NCBI GenBank assembly: GCA_001724265.1 | Contig: MEDY01000081.1 | Coordinates: 1-64,000, forward strand | Length of the DNA stretch: 64,000 nt | From: Rhizaria sp. SCN 62-66 | Taxonomy: Eukaryota | Reading direction: 5' to 3' | Shown here: positions 6,483 to 19,843 of the stretch, one piece after another | How positions within the stretch are numbered: the first letter of the stretch is position 1 | Layout of the letters: each line of letters begins with the position of its first letter | Position numbers and translations under genes: made by a program | The notes under the pieces: model-generated | Database searches by the model: none | What the model saw: the letters and a program-made list of their open reading frames with translations, nothing else | Told to the model about the DNA's origin: nothing

Positions 6483-7886
6483 TTAGACGAGGCCGCTGCC
6501 GCGCGCGAGCGAGACGGTGTAGGACTTGTCGAAGGCGGCCAGGAACGCGGCGCGAGCCTCGGGGGTCGACTTCTGGTTCGTGTTGGAGGTCTCGAGGAGC
6601 GAGAACTCCATCTTGGGGAACTTGCCCTCGCGAACGAGCTCCTCCTTGGCCGACTCGAAGGCCTGGTTGACCTCCTGGCTGATGATGCGCTCCAGCTCCT
6701 CCTCGAGAAGCTGGGCGGCCTCCTCCTTCATCGTCGACTTGAGAGCCATCAGGGACGCGATCTCCTTCTGCGCGCGCACGGCAGAGTTGATCTGAGCGTA
6801 GACCATCGCCTCGGCCTCAGCCATGGCGGCCGCCTGCGCCTGGGCCTCGACCTGGGCGCCCGCGGAGACCTCGAGCAGCGAGCTAGGGGCGTCGGCGTCG
6901 ACCTCAGCGAACACCTCGACCTCGGAGTCAGCCTCGGCATCCGCCTCAGCCTCAGCCTCGGACTCAGCCTCGGACTCGGCGTCGACCTCAGCCTCGGCCT
7001 CGGCCTCAGCATCAGCCTCGGCGTCAGCCTCAGCCTCCGCCTCCATCTCAGCCTCGGCCTCGGCGTCGAGCTCAGCGAGCGCGTTGACCTCAGCGGCGAC
7101 GGCGGCAGCGAGCTCAACGGCGCCCTCAGCCTCGACCTCGGACTCGGAGTCGGCGGAGATCTCGATCAGCGACTCGCCGCGCATCTCGGCGATGCGCTTG
7201 TTGGCCTGCTTCTTGGTCCAGGCGTTGTTGTAGTTGTCGAATTTGTCGGCCCACTGCGCGCTCTTGGCGTAGCGGTTCGCAGCAGCCTGCGCGCGGCGCG
7301 TGCCGATGGGGTCCGCGTCGACGTGGCCCGAGCGCGCGTTCTGCATCGCCGCAGTAGCCCAGTCGGACTCGACCTCGGCCTCAGCCTCAGCCTCGGCGGC
7401 GGCCTTAGAAGTGATCGTGGTGGTGGCCTCAGTCTCGACCAGGGCCGTGTGGAGCGGGCCCTCAGAGAGCAGCGAGCGGAGCTGGGCCTCCATGTCGACC
7501 TCCTCGGTGGCGTCCGCGGTGGTCTCGATGAACGACGTCGTCGAGGGGGCCTGGACGCTGGCGACCGTCGAGGTGGGGTTGGGGGCCGCCGACGCGGGGC
7601 CGGAGCCCCACTGGACGGGGCCACCATAGTAGTAGTACGGCGACCACTGGCGGAAGGGGTGACGCTGGGGACCGACGTAGCTGACCGACGGGAGAGGGTA
7701 GAACGGGTTGAAGTTCTGGTACGGCGGCAGGAACTGCGAGTAGTAGGGCGTCGGGAAGGCAGCAGGCATGATGTAGGAAGGACTACCCGCCTCAGCCTGA
7801 GCCTCGGCCTGCACCTCCGTTGCCACAGCGGCGGAGCAGGCCAGAGACGCGACAAAGAGGCCAAGTGCAAACTTCACGGCCTTCAT
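6483..7886 (-). CDS. Predicted secreted Ala/Glu-rich protein, 467 aa, with signal peptide and recurring S-[F/L]-[L/I/V]-E motifs; TAA stop
   Basis: N-terminal MKAVKFALGLFVASLACSA signal peptide, strong C/G-ending codon bias, Pro/Tyr-rich segment, (AE)n tracts and a helical C-terminal region. Confidence 0.88.
   Translation of the reverse strand: MKAVKFALGLFVASLACSAAVATEVQAEAQAEAGSPSYIMPAAFPTPYYSQFLPPYQNFNPFYPLPSVSYVGPQRHPFRQWSPYYYYGGPVQWGSGPASAAPNPTSTVASVQAPSTTSFIETTADATEEVDMEAQLRSLLSEGPLHTALVETEATTTITSKAAAEAEAEAEVESDWATAAMQNARSGHVDADPIGTRRAQAAANRYAKSAQWADKFDNYNNAWTKKQANKRIAEMRGESLIEISADSESEVEAEGAVELAAAVAAEVNALAELDAEAEAEMEAEAEADAEADAEAEAEAEVDAESEAESEAEAEADAEADSEVEVFAEVDADAPSSLLEVSAGAQVEAQAQAAAMAEAEAMVYAQINSAVRAQKEIASLMALKSTMKEEAAQLLEEELERIISQEVNQAFESAKEELVREGKFPKMEFSLLETSNTNQKSTPEARAAFLAAFDKSYTVSLARGSGLV
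6895..7080 (-). repeat. Degenerate hexamer repeat (GCC/GCT-GAG)n encoding an AEAEAEADAE tract
   Basis: Runs of gcctcg/gcctca on the + strand. Confidence 0.85.
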
Positions 7887-8818
7887 CGCTCACCTTTTAA
7901 CGCAAAGAGAGTCACAAAAAGGGCGAGGGGACAGAAAACAGACAGAAAATAAGGGGCGTGAGCAAGTGGGGTGGGGATGGCTTGAGGGTGGAAAGGAGGA
8001 GTTGGACGGGGGTCTGCATGGCCTTCAAAAGGCGATACGAGTGCAAACCACGACACAAGGACGCTCTGTGAGATACTTCTGGTAGTGATAAAAACTCTCA
8101 GACATCCCCAGGCGCACACACGAAAGCAGGCCCGAGAACGAGTCGGGGGCAAGAGGAGAGTAAGAGGTCTCTGTGAAGCAACACGACGAGGTTATCTTCA
8201 GGGCGGTCCATGTAGGCAAAAGCGTCCCCATGTAGCGCCATGAATACAACAAGGAAATAATTACGACATGCAATAAAATCATATTTCACCTACAACCCGA
8301 GAGGGTGCTAAATGGGGTCCCTGCAGACCGATTTCGACGTCTCTCAGACCTTCCTTTAGGGGAACTCGGTCTGAAGGCGGCGACTTAACTTCCGTGTTTT
8401 TCGGTCCTCGCTGGTCCAAAGCAAAAGCAACTTGAGATTTGGACAATCAGCGACAGCTTTATGAAATAATGTCATGAGCTCTGAAAAGAAAAAGTTGACA
8501 ATGAGAGGCGAGCATATTCATTGATTCTGAAAAACGTTCATAAATTTGTATGGGTATTTACCTAATGTGTCAAAACAACTCTTGTCCAATCTGGCTGACA
8601 CAACCAAACGTGGCTTTGGATCGTACATATGCCACTCGTTTGTCTTATATATAACACACTGATCGCTGATACAACACTCTCTCGCGGCGGCTACTACCGA
8701 CGCATGTGAGCTCTATCTATTGACACTAAACATCAACAACTACACAGTAACAAAACAGTTCATGCTTCTGACATGAACACTCTCCTCGCGACACTCTAAA
8801 ACTTTGCCCAGCGTTTCT

Positions 8819-10427: not shown

Positions 10428-13400
10428 TCACTCCTCGTCGTCGTCGCCAGCGATCACGCGGCGCGAAGGCGCTGCGGCAGCAGGGACGACGCGGGCGTCA
10501 ACCTCGTCGTCGTCGTCGTCGTCGTCGTCGTCAGCGAGCGCGACGCGGCGGCGCTTCACGGTCTGGTTCACCACCTCCTCGTCGTCGTCGTTTGCAACGC
10601 CGGTGGAGTTGCTGCTGGCGGGGTGGGCGCCGCGGTTGCGGGCGCGGAGCAGCGCGGTGAGTCCATCCTCCTCCTCGTCGTAGTCGTCACGCGCGTCGGC
10701 GGCCTCCTTCTTGTCGCCGCCCTCAGTCTTAACCGCCGCCTCGGCGTCGGCGTCGGAGTCGGAGTCGGAGTCGGAGTCGGAGTCGGCGGCCTTGGCGGCG
10801 ACAGCAGCGGCGTCGTCGGCGTTGGCAGCGGCGGCGGCGGCAGCGGCGGCGAGGAGAGATTTGTCCTTCTTCTCCTTCTTCTCCTTCTTTTCCTTCTTCT
10901 CCTTTTTCTCCTTCTTCTCCTTCTTGTCTTTCTTGTCCTTCTTCTCCTTCTTGACGCCAGCCTCAGACTTGACTCTAACCGAGCCGGCAGCAGCAGCCGC
11001 GGCGACAGCGGCCGCAGCCGCCTTGGCCTTGGCCGCAGCCGCCGCAGCGGCCGCCTTGGCCTTGGCCTCGGCACGGAGACGCTCCTTCTCGGCCTTGGCC
11101 TCGGCCTTGGCCTTGGCGCGGGCCTCGGCCTTGGCCGCCAGACGCGCCGCGCGCTCCTCCTCGGTCTCGCCCTCGACCACGTCGTTGGCGTCGTCCTCGG
11201 CCGCGACGTTGTCGTCGCCGTCGTCGTCGTAGTCGTCGTCGTCGTCGTCGTCATCCGCGGCGCCGCGACGAGCCCTCTTGCCCGCCTCGCGTTTGCTCTT
11301 GACCATGTCGGCCTCGGCCTCGGCCTCCTGCAGCCGCGCCATTGCAGCCTCGCGCGCCACGGCGGCCGCAGCCAGCAACACGCGCGCCTGCTCCTGCTCG
11401 GTCTCGGTCGCCGCGCGCGAGGCCTCGGCCTCGGCGGCAGCCACGGCGGCGCGCGCGGCGGCGGCCTCGGCCTCGGCGGCCGCCATCTGCTGCTGCTGCG
11501 CATGCTCCTGCGCGATGGCAGCGCGCGACTTAGTCAGGATCGACGTCATGTGAGGAATCTTGAGGTCCAGGTACTCGAGGTGCTTCGACGAGCGCAGCGC
11601 GAGGTTCTTGAGCGAGATGTTGCTGCTGCTGGAGCCCGCGCTCGGTACGGCGGCAGGGACTGAGGTAGAGGCAGAGGCAGATGCGCTAGAGCTGTTGACG
11701 CTGGCCGCGGCCTCGGGCTAGGCGGCCTTGATGAGCTGCGCGAACATGCTGCGCGCGAGCGTGGCGTCTGCGAGCGCGGCCTCGACGCTGGCGACGTCAA
11801 CCATACCCACGGTCACCGCGGCCGAGGTAACACCCGCCTGTGCGGCCACCGAGGCCTCCTCGAGCGTGATGGCCATGTTGTACCACAGCGAATGCTTGCC
11901 GGGCGTCAGCTCCAGCGCGCGGGCCAGAGCGCGCCGCGCGTCGCTGGCGCGGGACGCGAGGTGGTAGGTGCGAGCTAGGTAGAGCTGCGCGTTGGCGACG
12001 GCCTCGATGCCCGCGCCCGTGGCCTCCAGGGTCGCGATGGCGGCCGAGTAGAGCAGGATCGCGTCGGCGTACTGGCCCTCCTGGGTGAGCACGTGTGCAA
12101 GGTTCACGGCCACGTTGGCGTCGCCTGGTACGGCAGCGCGCGCGTCGGCAAGCGCCGCGCGCACCAGCGGCAGCACGGCGCGCGTCTTGCCGGTGCCGGC
12201 GGGCAGCCCCGCGGCGGCCTCGTCAACCTGCGCCAGCTCGGCCATCGCGGCCGTCAGCCCCAGCAGCGCGGGCAGGCAGCCCGGGTCCAGCGTCAGCGCG
12301 CGGTTGAACTTAGACACGGCGTCGCCCAGGTCCGACTTGGCAGTCGCCAGGTGCGTCGCCACAGCCTTGTCCAGCTCGGGCTTGGACGAGCTCGACGGAC
12401 GCAGCTGCCGCAGCTCCACCAGCCGCGCCGCCTTGACGCGCTCGTTCGAGCCGCGCGCGGCCAGCAGACGGCCCTTGGCGGTGATCGCGTAGGCGTCCTT
12501 GAGCGCAGCGCCGCTCGCGCCGGCGCCGGGGGCAGCGCTGTCTGCGTCGGTCATGGCGGAGCTAGTGCCGGAGTGCGTGGCCTGCTCGCGGTACGCAACT
12601 TCGTAGAGACGCTCGGCGCGCGAGAGCAGCGCGGCGTTGCGGTGCTTGTTGTCAAAGCTGAGCTCGCCCAGGATCGAGAGCACTTGCGCGCGCGCCTCCT
12701 GCCCCGTAACGGGGCGCACGGCCGCGAAGGCCTCGACCACGCCCGCGCCCACGGCGGCTGCGGCAACGGCGGGGTCCGCGGTCGCCGCCACGCCCGCACC
12801 GGCGGCGGATGCGGCCTCGCCGTCAGTCATGGGCTTAGCGTTAGCGTTGGTGTTGGCGGTGTTTGTGAGGGAGGAAGGCGGGAGGTTGACGAGAGCGCGA
12901 AGCTGGTTAAGCCCCCACTCGAGGCCGAGCAGCGAGTGGCGCGTGGCCAGCTCGGCCAGCTTCACCACGGCGTCTGTGTAGCCGCTGTGGCTGCGGACCA
13001 GCGCAGCCAGCACCAGCTCCGCCTCGGTCGTCTTGCCCGCCTGCTCCAGCAGCAGCGCCACGTTGTAGGCAGTGGTGACGGCCGCGGCGGGCAGCGGCAG
13101 CGGCAGCGAGATGCCCGCGACCGTGAGCGACGACGACGGCAGCGACGAGATCAAAGTTGAGCCGCTGTCGGCGCCGGTCGCGGCGGGATCGGACAGCGCG
13201 GCCGCCATCTCGGCCTCGGTGGGGCCGGCGGTCGCCGCGGTGACCGTGGGCGCGGCGCTGCTAGAGGCGGGCGAAGCGGCCGTGGGGCTGAGCTCGCGGC
13301 GCAGCTGCTGCAGCGAGTAGCTGTAGGCGGCAGCGGCGGCGTCGGGAGCAGAGCCCAGCTCGTGCAGCGCCGCGCCGAGGTTGTGCCACAGCGCGCGGGG

Positions 13401-15806
13401 GGCCGCGGCCACGGCGGCCTCGGTCACGACGGCAGCCGCAGCCGCAGTCGCATCGGCGGCGGAGTCGGCGTTGTTGGGGTTGGAGGTGAGCGTGGCGACG
13501 GACACGCCGGTGAGTAGCGACACGGCGCGGGCGATACTCGCGAGCGCGGCGGCGGGGGCCGCGGCGCCGCCCGTCACGGCGGCCGTGGCGCAGGCCTGCG
13601 CGTGCTCGGCCAGCACCAGCGCCTCGGCCTTGTCCAGCGCACGGACGGCGGACGTCCCCTCAGACTTGTTGCCGTTGTTGTCCGAGGCGGCGGCGAGGGG
13701 CGCGAGCGCGCCGCTGGCGAGGGCCGAGGCCGCGGTAGCGAGCAGCGGGCGCGCGCGTGCGGGGTCGGCGCCAACGGTGAGCAGCGCGTGGCCCAGCGCC
13801 AGCGCCACCGAAGGCTCACCGGCCGGGGCCGCGGCGGCCGCGCGGGTCAGTGCGGCCACAGCGGCGCGGCCGGTCGTAGTCGCGGTAGACGGGGACGAGA
13901 GCGCGGAGCGCAGGAGCAGCTTGCCAAGGCCCAGGAGCGCGCCTGGGTGGGCCGGGGCCAGGCGCAGGGCGGCGGAGTAGAGGCTCAGCGCCTGTGGGGA
14001 GTTGAGCGGCAAGAAATAGTGGGATATGAGTCGTTGGGTAATAAAATAATGTTTACATTTAACTTTGAGAAAAGATACGAGACAGAATGTCAACATGGCA
14101 AACAAGAAAACATATAGGCGTACCTGAGACGCGAGGACCTCGCCCGTGGCGGCCACGTTGACCCCTGCGGCGCTGCTGCTGCCGAACACGCTGTCCACGT
14201 CACCCATCGCGGCGCCCGCTGCGCCGGCCCCGGCCTCGGCCTCGGCGGCAGTGGCGAGGACCGCGGCGGCGGCGACGGAGGGCTGGTCGGGCAGCGCGAG
14301 CCCAGCGAGCGAGTGCGCGACGCGGGCGCGCTGGTATGCGATCTCGGCCCGCAGCGCCTCGACGCCGATGGCGCTGAAGCCGCCCAGCGCGCCACTGGCC
14401 GTGGCCTCGGCGCGCGCGAGCAGCGCCTCGATGCCGGCCGCGGCCGAGGTGGGCAACGTCACGGTCACCGCGCCCTCGCTGCTCACGGCCACCTGCGGGC
14501 TGCCGGCCTGGAGGCGCGCGCGCGTGCGTGCGGCGAAGAAGGCGTGGTTGGCCAGCGCCGCGAGCGCAAGCGGGTGATTCGGCGCAAGCGACTGTGCGTA
14601 GGCCAGGAGTGATAGCGCCTTGGCGGGGTCGCCCGTCGCCGCGGCGTCAGCGCCAGCGCTGCCGGCGGCGGCGGTGGCGGGCGGCGGGTGGAGGAAGAGC
14701 TGGAGCTCGAGCAGGCCGAGCGCGGCGGCGGCGTCGGCGCACTTGGGGTCAAGCTGCAGCGCGCGCATAAAGGCGCGGCGCGCGGCAGTGTAGGCCTTAA
14801 GCGCGTAGTGACAGAGCCCGATCGACACGCGCACGGCGGCCGGGAGAGCCGGGTTGGCAATAAGCGCGGCGGAGTAGGCGGCCAGCGCGCTGCGGGGATC
14901 GCCGCGGAGCGCCTTGACGAGCCCCATGAGGAGCAGCGCCAGCGCGTCGCCAGGCGGCGCCGTGGCGCTGCCCGCCGAGGCCAGCGCGACCGCCGCCGTG
15001 CTCGTTGGCGCGCCGCCCGCGGGCCCCGCGGGGGCGGAGGCGGAGCCGAGCGCGAGCGCGAGGGCGGACTCGGCCGTGGCGGCGGCCGAGGCGGCTGTGG
15101 GCTCGGCGGCGAGCGCGAAGTAGGCGCGCATCGACCAGACTGAGGGGCAGTTGACATGGGTCGCCTGCATCGTCGTCGTCGCGGTCGTCAGCGCCTGTGG
15201 GCAGACAAAGAAGTAGAAAAAACACGATTGATAGAGTTAAATGTGAGACAAATTGGCATTGAAACAGCAAGGGTGCATGAAACGAGGACGTCGTGTGTAT
15301 GAGCGTACCTGCGTGGCGGAAGATGCGGCGACGGTGCGGTCGCGCACTGGCAGAGCGAGCGCCTGCGCCATGGCGGCGCCGGCCTGCGCTGTGAGCAGCT
15401 TGACCTGGGCCAGACTGTCGGCCGCGGTCTGCACCGGCACCGTCTGTGCGTGCTGCACAAGCTGCTGGAACGCCGCGCCGTGCCCGCGCTTGTGGTACTC
15501 GAGCGCCAGCGCGTGGCAGAGCGACGCCGACACGCCCTGTGACAGCAACGCGTGCAGGTCCGACAGCGGCGGCAACGCGTCGGCGGGGCTCAGAGTCAGC
15601 GGGAGAGCGACGGTCGAGAGGGGCTCGGTCGCGGGCGCCGAGCCGGGGGCCAGCGAGTACAGCAGGGGGTTCTGCAGCGGCAGCAGGAGGTCGTAGGACG
15701 CGGGGAGCGCTGAGGCGGCGTCGAGCGCGGCCACGGAGTCGACAGGCGCGTTGGTGTTCATGGTGGGGTCAGCCGAGGCGGAGGCCGCGGCGGTCGAGGA
15801 AGACAT
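10428..15806 (-). CDS. CTR9: PAF1 complex TPR subunit CTR9, ~1710 aa (exons 15806-15309, 15194-14124, 13991-10428), with one in-frame TAG at 11720-11718; TGA stop
   Basis: N-terminus LCHALALEYHKRGHGAAFQQLV resembles CTR9 [64 protein letters not shown] and LWYNMAITL are TPR motifs. After the TAG the same frame continues into a helical region and a charged K/D/E tail as expected for CTR9. Comparisons are from memory, not an alignment. Confidence 0.88.
10754..10950 (-). repeat. Low-complexity coding repeats: (GACTCC)n = DSDSDS and a KKE/KKD repeat
   Basis: Tandem ggagtc units at ~10754-10785 and ttctcc/ttcttc units at 10861-10950 on the + strand. Confidence 0.85.
13992..14123 (-). other. Spliceosomal intron (132 nt, phase 0, stop-free 3n) in CTR9
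   Basis: CAG|GTACGC ... CCACAG|GCG; an AT-rich island that the ORF track translates as atypical sequence (VRLYVFLFAMLTFC...). Confidence 0.88.
15195..15308 (-). other. Spliceosomal intron (114 nt, phase 0) in CTR9
   Basis: CAG|GTACGC ... CCCACAG|GCG; AT-rich, contains an in-frame TAA. Confidence 0.88.
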
Positions 15807-16640: not shown

Positions 16641-19600
16641 ATGGACCGTTATATGGTGCTGGCCAAGGTTGGTGAAGGCACGTTCGGCGAGGTCTTCAAG
16701 GCCCGCTGTCGCGACACAGGCGCCTATGTACGTTACTCACATATTCGTTCATTAACCTCGACAAATCCATATAGATAACAACGGTATCGCAATCAACGTC
16801 GGCGTGGCATATCACATCTTGTATTCTAACTGTACTTTTTTCCGTGCTCGGTCCTGCAACTATTGTGTATCTCCACAGGTGGCCCTAAAGAAGGTTCGCG
16901 TGCGCAACCTCGCCGCGGGTCTCCCTAAGTCTGTCATCCGCGAAATCCGCGCCCTCTCAGCGCTGCGCTCGCCGCACCTCATCCGCCTGCTGCGTTACTT
17001 TGCATTTGGCGCGGGTGTTGTGCTGGTGCTCGAGTACATGGCCAGTGACGCGCTCAAGCTCGCCAAGACGCTCTCGCAGCGCACGGGCGCCCGGCTGCCG
17101 CTCGCTGCAGTGAGGTCGCTCACGCGAGACACCGTCGAGGGGCTGTGGGCGCTGCACGGCAAGGGCGTGATGCACCGCGATGTGAAGCCCGGCAATGTGC
17201 TGGTGGACAGCGACGGCCGCGCCGTGCTGGGCGACCTCGGCATGGCACGCGTCTACCAGCAGGGACAGGTACGGAGATTCGCCAAATTCGAGCGGATATC
17301 ATCAAAACGTGCACATATATTACAATATATGGGGATACTCTTTTTTAATGTTGCATTGTGAGTTTGCATCAATGAATTGGACTAATCCCCGACAATCAAT
17401 CTCATTACCGTCTACTTTTCTACAGATCTACTCGCACGAAGTCGCGTCGCGGTGGTACAAGGCTCCCGAGCTCCTGCTGGGCACGCGCCAGTCGACCCCT
17501 GCCATCGACATGTGGGCTCTGGGCTGCGTTGTCGCAGAGTGGCTCTCCGGCGGCGCGCTCATGGCAGGCGGCAACGACATCGACCAACTGGCGCGCATTT
17601 TCTCCACTGTGGGCACGCCTCTCGAGACTGAGACGGAGCCAGAAAACGCTGACGCAAACGCAACAGACGGTAACAACAATAACAGCAAGGCAGATACAAC
17701 TAACGTTACAGAAAATAGTTTTAGCGTTGGGTTTGTGACTGAAACTGGTTTCCCGTTCGCGCCCGTGCCGTGTCGCCGCACGTGGCCCTCGGTGGTGACT
17801 CTGCTCGACTACACTAAGATTACATTCCCTCCATCCGCGGGCCGCGACTGGACAGAGACGTTGCCCACCGCTGACCCGGCGGCCGTGGACTTCGTGGCGC
17901 GGCTGCTGGTGTTGGACCCTGTTAAGCGCATGACTGCGGAGCAAGCGCGACAGCACCCGTTTGTCACCGGCAACCTGAACACGCGGACCGGCGACAACGC
18001 GGACACCGGCACGGTTGGTGCGCTTTGGAGTTGTCTTGACGTTAGGAACAGCGGCGCTGACGGCAAGGAGCTCGTGGCGTCGCTAGTCAAGTTTTCTCTC
18101 GCGGCCAACGAGGCCGCAGCGGCCACGACGGTCGCGGTTGCGGTCGCGCACGGACACACCCAGGGGTACGGCGCCCGCAACGGCGGCGACGGCGCTAGCG
18201 ACGATGACGAAGACGAGGACGACGAGGGTTACAGCAACTTGATGTACGCGAACGATCCCACCGCGAGTAACAGCAACGTTAACACTGGCCGCAGTCTCAA
18301 CTCCACGCTGCACACGCCCACAACAAACGCCACAGCAAACGCGTCGGCCTCAGCGATGACGACGACGCTGACCAGAACTGGTCTTATCAATGGTAGCGGA
18401 GGCGCGCCGCTGTTCACGCCGCCACGGCCGAGGCAGCAGTCTGTCAAGCAAGCACTCGGCAATGACGATAGCAAAGACGGCACTGGCAAGTGCTGCTGTC
18501 GGGGTGGCGTGAGCTGCCGTGGTCGCAAGAGCAATGCAAGTGTTTGTGATAGCTTTGGCTCATATCGGACCATGTCAGATGTGACTGTGAACACAACGAC
18601 GAGCAAGGGCGGCGTCGACGAGAAGACGGTATTCACCGTTGCTTTGAACAGCGACCCGCAGTCATGCGGCACGAATGATAACAAGAATGAAGGTTTTGCA
18701 ATGCAGATTGATACTCGCGGACATGTGTCATTCACTCTGCCCTCGGTCACACCGACAGTGCTCGCAGCCCAAACGAATCAAGGACAGGGATCGAGCAAGC
18801 ACAAGACCAAGAAGAAGATGTGGCAGGGGAAATGTAAAAACGCACAGAAGGGCAGCGCTAAGAGTAATTTCTCACGCTCGGAATGCTGCTGCCTCCAAAC
18901 CTAGCCACAGCCTGAGCGGCTGCGACTGCCTTCGTGGCTGTCGACCCAGTCGATGCAGGAAGAAGTCGCCTTCTGGACCGCGGTTGACGCTGCCACCAGC
19001 GACACGAATCGCGTTCCCAGCATCAACATCAACGGAGCGCCTACCGTGAGCAGCCTGCCCGTGGGCCATCTTATCAGCGCTGCCACGGCCGCCACCCCGT
19101 ACAGTCACGAGATCATGGGCGCGGCACTGCTCGCCGCTACACTCGAGACCAGTGAGACCACCCCTGGAACCGCGATCTCTGCGGCGAGTGTGGGTAATAA
19201 TGCTGCCGTTGGCGACTGCGGTGTTGATGTTGACGCCGTTGTTCTCGCAATGATTCTTGGTATCAACGTAAACACGACTCCGGCACCCGCTCCTGTAGAC
19301 ACAAGTACTGGAGGCAGTGAAGCTGTGAGTGCTGCATTAAAGGTGACTGTGGGGGTATGTGTTTGCAACAACGCCATTTTCCGACCGCCCGGCTCGGTCA
19401 CGTTTCCACACGACGCCCTTCCCAACAGCACCAGCGCCAACACAGCCGGTAATGCCAACGCAGTCGCAGGCGGTGCTACGGCGAGCAATGAGGGCGAAAA
19501 CGCAAAGAGCAACGCTGTGGACAGTGGTTTTGATAACACTGTTGTTCTCGCCGCCGCCGTCACGGCCCCGGACGCCAACACCAACAGCTATGCCTTTGCC

Positions 19601-19843
19601 CACGGTAAAAGCAACAACATTCACAATAATAGCGGCGGCATCGGTGGCAACGTCATCATCAGCGACGCCGTAACTGCTGCGGCCGCCACGGGCGCGCTGA
19701 CCGAAGAGGATGACGGCGACGGCGGCAACGGCTCCAAGATGGCATGGGCCATGCTCGCCGAGGTCAGGCGCTTCCACCAGCTCCTCCAAAAGCTCGACTT
19801 GGCACAGGCGCAAACGCAGACGCAAATGCAAAACTAGTCATGA
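16641..19843 (+). CDS. CDK20: CDK20/CCRK (LF2)-like kinase with long C-terminal extension (exons 16641-16727, 16879-17268, 17426-19843; ~964 aa if TAG 18902 and TAG 19835 are sense; TGA 19841-19843)
   Basis: MDRY.VLAKVGEGTFGEVFKA, VALKKV, GLPKSVIREIRAL, FGAGVVLVLEYMASD, HRDVKPGNVL, DLGMAR, YSHEVASRWYKAPELLLG, DMWALGCV, GNDIDQLARIF..VGTP fit the CDK20 subfamily. The kinase domain is secure; the 3' end depends on how TAG is read. Confidence 0.82.
16728..16878 (+). other. Spliceosomal intron (151 nt, phase 0) in CDK20
   Basis: TAT|GTACGT ... TTCTAAC (branch-like) ... CCACAG|GTG; joins TGAY|VALKK. Confidence 0.93.
17269..17425 (+). other. Spliceosomal intron (157 nt, phase 0) in CDK20
   Basis: CAG|GTACGG ... 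ACTAAT ... CTACAG|ATC; joins ARVYQQGQ|IYSHEV in the activation loop. Confidence 0.93.

Follow-up and report, generated by a model that had tools for sequence, protein, structure and literature searches.

The Paf1 elongation complex has CTR9 as its scaffold. In the 64,000-nucleotide stretch of DNA analysed here (the window; positions 1 to 64,000 of contig MEDY01000081.1, Rhizaria sp. SCN 62-66), the frame of the CTR9 gene contains an in-frame TAG, which calls for a comparison with systems in which a stop codon is passed, recoded or edited. Among viruses, tobamoviruses carry the sequence UAG-CAR-YYA, and retroviral gag-pol a UAG with a pseudoknot. For leaky stops in general, two studies name the 3' base as the main known context determinant, with C enriched at readthrough stops (PMC5100048, PMC3159437). 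Filamentous ascomycetes correct premature stops in a stage-specific manner in dozens of their genes, among them that of the pseudokinase PUK1 (PMC11156358, PMC10776026, PMC4817773). For Ctr9 itself, architectural and partitioning roles of the C-terminal helix and the charged tail are proposed in a recent study; there, the "trestle" helix has few conserved residues, it was detected with a hidden Markov model (HMM) in 138 of 231 homologues, and the tail consists of disordered charge blocks (PMC13289920).

The locus described here is a three-exon CTR9 gene (15806–10428, minus strand), and its single coding frame across the TAG is well supported. The full-length protein requires readthrough, recoding or editing of this codon. 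We tentatively regard context-dependent stop-codon readthrough as the most likely mechanism.

Results

The TAG is located at 11720–11718 on the minus strand, as the 757th codon of exon 3 and the 1281st of the gene, in the context GCC GCC TAG CCC GAG. The surrounding minus-strand translation is ...SMFAQLIKAA TAG PEAAASVNSSS...ISLKNLALRSSKHLEYLDLKIPH MTSILTKSRAAIAQEHAQQQQ.... Two open reading frames (ORFs) of 1150 aa (11718..15170) and 373 aa (10428..11549) share the same frame on this strand, and they are bridged by the TAG and 56 sense codons (11717–11550). Exon 3 (13991–10431, minus) forms one coding frame of 1187 codons: 757 codons precede the TAG, and 429 sense codons follow until the TGA at 10430–10428. 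The product is 1280 aa long if the TAG terminates, and 1710 aa if it is decoded.

The 1150-aa ORF has been recorded from four contigs, each stopping at the TAG. A second haplotype (P0003) on a different contig is identical at 1148 of the 1150 residues (99.8%) and has the same final residue. The TAG is therefore not an assembly slip of one contig, and it is real in the DNA. The comparative evidence for conservation of the stop consists of these two haplotypes, and the next relative in the collections searched is at 34% identity. Inspection of this codon in related strains, which a preliminary description of the locus had proposed, thus yielded the same end in the second haplotype, with the relatives limited to that 99.8% identical sequence.

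A codon-usage model trained on other genes of the window (14,856 codons from the giant HECT ORF, fructose-1,6-bisphosphatase, Arf, and an isocitrate dehydrogenase exon) served to assess coding potential. The log-likelihood per codon was –3.43 upstream of the TAG in exon 3 and –3.45 over the 429 codons downstream of it. The other five frames of the CTR9 region scored –3.8 to –5.1, and the non-coding flanks –5.1 to –5.3. For the 56 codons immediately after the TAG, the value was –3.61 as compared with –4.19 to –5.13 for the other frames, and the GC content at third codon positions (GC3) was 0.82. On both sides of the TAG, the in-frame reading was the best of six by codon likelihood. Measured in 40-codon windows, GC3 in this frame never left the range of 0.80–0.97 between 12320 and the TGA at 10428; beyond the TGA, it fell to 0.40–0.47. 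Dinucleotide-preserving shuffles of the 429 codons contained 6.9 in-frame stops on average, and 1 of 2000 was stop-free. A stop scan based on GC by codon position proved unspecific in GC-rich DNA, and codon likelihood was used instead. In this six-frame scan of the 64 kb, only two stops were flanked on each side by 50 codons that were coding-like and best of six: the CTR9 TAG, and a TAA inside intron 1. By these measures, the frame is coding before as well as after the TAG. The AT-rich spacer found at every other gene boundary of the window is absent between the two ORFs, which argues against an independent downstream gene.

The gene model was then completed around this frame. Exon 1 (15309..15806, minus) encodes the N-terminal region in 166 codons from the ATG at 15806 and ends with ...CAG|GTACGC. 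Intron 1 (15195..15308, minus; 114 nt, GTACGC…CCCACAG, GC 0.43) contains the in-frame TAA mentioned above. Exon 2 (14124..15194, minus; 357 codons) encodes the TPR repeats that are best conserved relative to human CTR9 and that match Pfam TPR_1/TPR_2. Intron 2 (13992..14123, minus; 132 nt, GTACGC…CCCCACAG, GC 0.38) is in frame and stop-free, so raw ORF calling reads through it into the protein. The part of exon 3 before the TAG (11721..13991, minus; 757 codons) covers the remaining TPR solenoid and its final helix, VEAALADATLARSMFAQLIKAA. At the other end, the terminal TGA (10428..10430, minus; TGA A) marks the point beyond which coding signal and GC content collapse.

Five introns define the intron signature of this genome, with AG|GTACG at the 5' end, a pyrimidine run and YAG at the 3' end, and an AT-rich composition. 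Besides the two in CTR9 (15195–15308 and 13992–14123, minus), one lies in a protein-kinase gene (17269–17425, plus, 157 nt), and two start at 1653 and 2887 (plus), with 3' ends that were not pinned. The three measured introns have lengths of 114, 132, and 157 nt and GC contents of 0.38–0.43 within very GC-rich exons. The idea that introns here are multiples of three was dropped: 114 and 132 nt fit, and the 157 nt of the kinase intron do not. GTACG is absent on the minus strand between 12072 and 10274, a region of exon-like composition, and no GT occurs between the codon of the conserved Phe (in the ..MFAQL.. helix) and the TAG, so a GT–AG intron spanning the TAG would delete the conserved Phe helix. 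For these reasons, no conventional intron can remove the TAG. Apart from the two introns, GC remains at 0.62–0.80 from about 15900 to about 10450, and all intergenic stretches are at 0.39–0.55.

These data bear out most of what the preliminary description had stated about the frame. Its letters around the TAG and its count of 56 joining codons were reproduced exactly; the codon usage it had called ordinary in this segment is coding-like; its estimate of about 430 residues lost by termination corresponds to the 429 codons counted. The single gene that it proposed, with no intron signature between the ORFs, agrees with a continuous coding frame across the TAG in which neither an intron of the genome's type nor an AT-rich intergenic gap was found.

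We assigned the upstream part by homology. A phmmer search against PDB sequences retrieved human CTR9 (9eh1_Q, E = 9.2e-16) over three collinear stretches, in which residues 73–213, 695–743, and 1004–1108 of the predicted protein (P0001) aligned with human residues 158–280, 492–540, and 665–764, respectively. A search of 1.84 billion representatives gave 397 matches at E<=1e-3. The best non-self match (P0005, 1565 aa) shows 34% identity (E = 4.5e-32), and is itself CTR9 by PDB search (E = 1.3e-34 to 9eh1_Q). Exon 1 alone had no significant match in the PDB, CTR9 included; its residues 76–119 match the N-terminus of P0005 (residues 27–70, E = 3e-06). The helix VEAALADATLARSMFAQLIKAA before the TAG aligns with the conserved "..V..A...L..A..iF..L" helix of CTR9 orthologues. 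On these similarities, the upstream part is assigned to CTR9, the scaffold subunit of the Paf1 complex, as had been proposed from the sequence at the outset.

The lineage appears to be poorly sampled, since its nearest relative among the 1.84 billion representatives is only 34% identical, and no closer one occurred in the collections searched. A homologue search among proteins of near length with the CTR9 query recovered only the self ORF. The corresponding search at shorter length returned nothing, and low-complexity words probably swamped its 8000 candidates. A scan of JGI metagenomes with a 297-aa piece spanning the TAG gave 179 pattern matches and no relatives. The CTR9 protein contains 28% Ala on both sides of the TAG and has long Ala/Ser/Thr-rich insertions between its TPR repeats.

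The segments after the TAG were compared with the C-terminal part of CTR9 orthologues. A Ser/Ala-rich linker of 35 codons (11613..11717, minus) comes first. Its codon usage is coding-like, and the model described below predicts a short helix at model residues 211–221 and a non-helical segment at 222–246, at low predicted local distance difference test (pLDDT) values of 58 and 48 for its blocks. It is followed by a single predicted helix of 104 residues (11301..11612, minus; LKNLALRSSKHLEY…AEADMVKSKRE), the putative counterpart of the CTR9 trestle. The remainder (10431..11300, minus) is a charged, low-complexity C-terminal tail with acidic runs and KEKK repeats. It contains a basic–acidic motif, KRRRVALADDDDDDDDDE (10503..10556, minus), at 42 residues from the protein end. 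Of 98 orthologues, 16 have this class of motif among their last 90 residues, and it occurs in 0.085–0.125% of composition-preserving shuffles, where the motif was defined post hoc, after the sequences had been seen. The charged fraction is 0.39 after the TAG as against 0.13 before it, and 0.35–0.56 in 41 orthologue tails.

In alignment A1, which combines the window piece with 36 orthologues (37 rows), the TAG column falls in a variable linker after the "..iF..L" helix. The RSSKHLEY segment of the window aligns there with the KAxKHxxF/Y block of the orthologues (RARKHHEY, KAAKHAIF, KAKKHASF, etc.). A profile from the last TPR onward was matched by 98 of 149 non-self homologues, whose tails measure 44–533 aa (median 288). 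Only one of the 98 has a tail below 55 aa, the length that a TAG-terminated protein would keep, and 88 extend through the KH..F/Y block. Three of the 98 entries keep no more than 66 residues after the last TPR. Such short-tailed database entries were rejected as parallels, as their ends resemble fragments or intron read-ins. The best HMMER stretch spans the TAG, with query residues 830–1199 aligned to residues 981–1342 of P0005 and the TAG at query position 1091. A single collinear BLASTP high-scoring segment pair to P0005 (99.8 bits, without composition correction) was discounted as inflated by low complexity.

AlphaFold2 modelling of residues 941–1330, guided by A1, gave a mean pLDDT of 81.3. 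The model places a disordered linker after the TAG, and then the 104-residue helix at model residues 247–350, with pLDDT values of 88–98 per block. In the structural comparison, the top rows were the CTR9 chains 9hvq_Q (Z = 18.4, root mean square deviation (rmsd) = 4.5, 269 residues aligned), 6af0_A (Z = 18.2), and 9rtt_Q (Z = 17.6). Among the 50 rows listed, only three, all human CTR9 (Z = 18.4, 17.6, and 15.7; rmsd 4.5–4.7; 269–270 aligned), reach model residues 334–336, which are aligned to chain residues 890–892. The generic TPR proteins among these rows stop near model residue 270. The reference structures for CTR9 were the human protein in PDB 9EH1/9HVQ/6TED and fungal Ctr9 in 6AF0/7DKH. 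The human CTR9 sequence given in the preliminary description is indeed found in human CTR9. A1 places the TAG between the two helices of that sequence, in the variable linker, as had been claimed for the last TPR helix and the conserved helix that follows.

We also examined how stop codons are used in the window. The terminal stops of seven genes (2226 and 3296, plus; 4415, 6483, 8819, and 10428, minus; 19835, plus), read with the next base, are TAA-G, TGA-G, TAA-G, TAA-G, TAA-A, TGA-A, and TAG-T. Despite a GC3 of about 0.88, TAA thus accounts for four of the seven, TGA for two, and TAG for one. This only terminal TAG, in the kinase gene, is backed by a TGA two codons later. The next base is C at both internal TAGs of the window (TAG CCC in CTR9 and TAG CCA in the kinase gene) and at none of the seven terminal stops. 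Both internal TAGs sit in low-complexity linkers, and neither is at a conserved position. The heptamer CCTAGCC is common to the two sites; with five occurrences as against 6.96 expected, it was rejected as a motif. No in-frame TAG occurs in the 14,856 training codons, which include an ORF of 13,989 codons, and the rarest sense codons there occur 9–16 times. TAG is therefore not an ordinary sense codon.

The second in-frame TAG (18902–18904, plus; ACC TAG CCA CAG) lies 7 kb away in the protein-kinase gene (about 16750–19840; Pkinase domain, CDK-like). After it, 310 coding-like codons continue in the same frame to TAG TCA TGA at 19835, and the composition collapses only past that point. The log-likelihood per codon is –4.05 before and –3.97 after the internal TAG, as compared with –4.24 to –5.05 in other frames; with all window sizes tried, the gene's own frame outscored the other five both before and after this TAG. 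Two of 2000 shuffles of the part after the TAG were stop-free. The ORF ending at this TAG has been recorded on six contigs, and a protein homologue search with the kinase region returned only the self ORF. The kinase case is weaker than that of CTR9 because the region is of low complexity and lacks homologues. No significant structure was predicted 3' of the kinase TAG (z = –1.39).

Discussion

With a coding frame that passes the TAG, we attempted to explain how a full-length protein could be made. We rank readthrough first, reassignment second, truncation third, and editing fourth, and consider a separate gene and an odd intron or error unlikely. According to the first of these explanations, TAG would remain a stop in the organism generally. 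Where TAG precedes C within a disordered linker, an amino acid would be inserted by a near-cognate or suppressor tRNA often enough to yield full-length protein, and the kinase gene 7 kb away would use the same device. Termination would produce a 1280-aa CTR9 with the TPR solenoid but with neither the long C-terminal helix nor the charged tail; decoding would produce a 1710-aa protein of the usual CTR9 architecture. In favor of readthrough, we counted the leaky context, the location within linkers, and how seldom TAG occurs in coding sequence. Passage of the TAG by the ribosome, its frequency, and the residue inserted are what we infer from these features.

Several observations weigh against this explanation. 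The hexamer after the CTR9 stop differs from the classical CAR-YYA. No stimulatory structure was found 3' of the CTR9 TAG, as the folding of the next 124 nt was less stable than that of shuffles (z = +1.68). The contrast in C context compares two sites with seven (Fisher p ~0.03), and conservation of the stop is drawn from just two haplotypes that are 99.8% identical. Classical readthrough is usually inefficient, so most CTR9 molecules would lack the helix and the tail, which is awkward for a core factor. The high efficiency needed for such a factor favors reassignment or editing over readthrough.

The identity of the downstream part belongs to the same weighing. As an alignment of CTR9 orthologues served to guide the AlphaFold model, the CTR9-like placement of the helix is not independent evidence. 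Sequence comparison of this part with phmmer gave only low-complexity matches in the PDB, and nothing below E = 0.1 among the 149 homologues. The downstream ORF was not listed when an HMM of a 38-position block was run against 996 six-frame pieces. The anchored profile gave 14.9 bits for the real sequence, 16.6 bits for the part before the TAG alone, and 15.2±2.0 for the shuffles; the real sequence was equalled or exceeded by 278 of the 500 shuffles. Alignment with hhalign resulted in a probability of 0.6% and E = 0.09 for the part after the TAG. A search of the ESM Atlas with the same part returned no usable match. Negative sequence tests are expected for a trestle with few conserved residues; they stay negative nonetheless.

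In position, length, charge, C-terminal motif, and predicted helix, the downstream part resembles a CTR9 tail at the level of architecture. Residue-level homology to CTR9 tails is not demonstrable with the sequence comparisons above. The parallel with human CTR9 drawn in the preliminary description therefore stands for the architecture, with the predicted 104-residue helix on the human CTR9 helix, and finds no counterpart in the five tests that used sequence only. Its proposed check by alignment or structure was similarly divided: the A1-guided model superposes on human CTR9 up to residues 890–892, and the anchored profile is indistinguishable from shuffles. Coding continuity and architecture support its "one protein" in the sense of one ancestral protein, to which residue-level homology of the tail does not contribute.

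A possible, if doubtful, alternative to readthrough is that this lineage no longer reserves TAG for termination. TAG would be a rare or ambiguous sense codon, perhaps only before C, owing to a cognate tRNA(CUA), an altered eRF1, or both, while TAA and TGA terminate. In two of the eight genes recognised in the 64 kb, 310–429 coding-like codons lie beyond an in-frame TAG. The terminators are mostly TAA (4/7) and TGA (2/7) at a GC3 that would not lead one to expect this, with the sole terminal TAG backed by a TGA. An efficient mechanism also suits a core factor better than a leak does. UAG-only cases with UAA and UGA as stops exist in the rhizarian exLh (UAG = Leu) and in Iotanema (UAG = Gln); exLh, however, has 384 in-frame UAGs in 71 genes (PMC5304391). 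The window has none in the 14,856 training codons, where even the rarest sense codons appear 9–16 times, and both of its TAGs are in low-complexity linkers away from conserved positions. No tRNA gene was found in the window, although 64 kb is too small to judge. We likewise hold it doubtful that TAG is context-dependent or ambiguous in this uncultured, GC-rich eukaryote, being decoded as an amino acid before C at an efficiency that suffices for essential full-length proteins, and avoided elsewhere. If true, this would represent an early or partial stop-codon reassignment in a lineage without a close sequenced relative, and in-frame TAG-C would mark many genes, as it does two of the eight recognised here.

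True truncation is unlikely. It would require that a nonsense allele (e.g. CAG to TAG) is fixed or common, and that loss of the tail is tolerated through another copy or allele or a relaxed need. TAG is one transition from CAG, the TAG column aligns with Gln in P0005, and the two haplotypes, identical at 1148 of 1150 positions, are close enough to share a young mutation. Three of 98 orthologue entries keep no more than 66 residues past the last TPR, though these are the entries whose ends look like fragments or intron read-ins. However, the 429 downstream codons are undecayed, with no stop, no frame break, and a codon usage equal to that upstream. A second nearby gene has the same pattern, and two independent fresh nonsense mutations in eight genes would be unexpected. 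Both TAGs, moreover, are in the leakiest 3' context.

Restorative RNA editing is improbable. Deamination of the A in the mRNA would turn UAG into UIG, which is translated as Trp, in the manner of filamentous ascomycetes. The system of these fungi favors hairpin loops and a U at position –1, and this preference for U directs it to UAG (PMC11156358, PMC10776026, PMC4817773). The 61-nt fold around the CTR9 TAG (–23.7 kcal/mol, z = –1.83, with 9 of 200 shuffles as stable) places the C-U-A in a 3-nt bulge of a GGCCGC/GCGGCC stem, which is suggestive only. The kinase site, in contrast, has no significant structure (z = –1.08, 32 of 200 shuffles). The system is known only from some ascomycetes, and nothing ties the organism to them; it is not a well-sampled fungus, as its CTR9 is at most 34% identical to anything in the 1.84 billion representatives.

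Excision of the TAG with a short or GC-rich intron of an unconventional type is very improbable, as is a shared sequencing or assembly error. AG dinucleotides do occur soon after the TAG, and the assemblies may share raw data. Against this, all five introns are AT-rich and start with GTACG, and the measured ones are 114–157 nt long. A GT–AG intron would have to remove the conserved Phe helix, the distinct haplotype has the same ORF end, and the kinase ORF ends at its own TAG on six contigs. Least credible of all is a pair of products, with the downstream ORF an independent gene or cistron from the ATG at 11549 or reached by reinitiation: this ATG does lie 56 codons past the TAG, and gene callers did record the 373-aa ORF, but the 56 codons in between are coding-like in the same frame, the AT-rich spacer of all other gene boundaries in the window is missing, and the predicted helix begins at 11612, upstream of the ATG.

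A stop placed exactly at the boundary of scaffold and tail could be a built-in means of switching the elongation factor between its full-length form and one without the tail. Taken together with the kinase case, it could alternatively be a sign that TAG does not carry its usual meaning of "stop" in this lineage. In either event, automatic annotation will split or truncate such genes, and both ORFs of the CTR9 gene have already been recorded as separate proteins.

Neighbouring genes

The window is eukaryotic, with exons at 62–84% GC (GC3 about 0.88) and introns and intergenic DNA at 38–55% GC. Eight genes were recognised: NADP isocitrate dehydrogenase, a small acidic protein, fructose-1,6-bisphosphatase, a protein of no assigned function, an Arf GTPase, CTR9, the protein kinase, and the giant HECT ORF. 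Scans of the 64 kb for tRNAs and Rfam families found nothing.

Beyond the kinase gene, an uninterrupted frame of at least 13,989 codons extends from 22032 to 64000 (plus), with no stop and no 100-nt window under 50% GC. No Pfam family was detected in its first 12,000 residues, and a HECT ubiquitin-ligase domain was identified that begins at the right edge of the window (E = 5e-21). If this ORF is a single exon and a single protein, it would be an exceptionally large HECT ligase. At 6483–7889 (minus), a gene of 468 codons shows a strong codon bias (–3.54 per codon) and has no Pfam family.

The stretch is present in metagenome runs from bioreactors and wastewater, and 11 of the 12 listed runs hold part of 11300–12100. 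RNA libraries, poly(A) among them, are included at shares of 0.25–0.45, from which we draw no conclusion on expression or habitat.

Comparison with known systems

The CTR9 gene would need stop-codon readthrough or recoding for its full-length product. Like other CTR9 proteins, this product has a TPR solenoid collinear with human CTR9, and the model of its last TPRs and of the predicted helix after the TAG fits CTR9 chains best. It differs from them in its 28% Ala content, its long insertions, and an identity of at most 34% to any relative, and also in the in-frame TAG just ahead of the C-terminal helix and in a tail without significant sequence similarity.

Among leaky stops, those of viruses (e.g. 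the alphavirus UGA-C) share the C directly 3' of the stop (PMC3159437); the CTR9 TAG has neither their CAR-YYA hexamer nor a significant downstream structure. Drosophila kelch and headcase, and the "abundant readthrough" genes of insects, resemble the CTR9 gene in having one in-frame stop, a long second ORF with a coding signature, and a 3' C (PMC5100048; 10.1101/2020.06.22.165522). The stop is a TAG here, whereas TGA is preferred there. The host here is a protist, and the 429-aa extension carries the part that orthologues always have. The long form would therefore be the ancestral protein, in contrast to an added isoform.

As in exLh (UAG = Leu) and Iotanema spirale (UAG = Gln), TAG is the only stop found in frame, with TAA and TGA as terminators; in these organisms, however, UAG occurs about five times per gene and at conserved positions (PMC5304391). 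The window has two TAGs in about 18,500 codons, none of them in the 13,989-codon ORF and both in linkers. In ascomycete A-to-I editing (PUK1, AMD1, and about 70 other genes), the genes concerned, including one for a kinase, are likewise intact apart from an in-frame TAG in the genome, and UAG is the preferred target. Such editing is known from some ascomycetes and from the sexual stage only, while the present case is read from DNA. Two features set this locus apart, the interruption of a core elongation factor by the stop at a domain boundary and the like pattern in a neighbouring gene. They leave room for an organism-level change in the reading of TAG.

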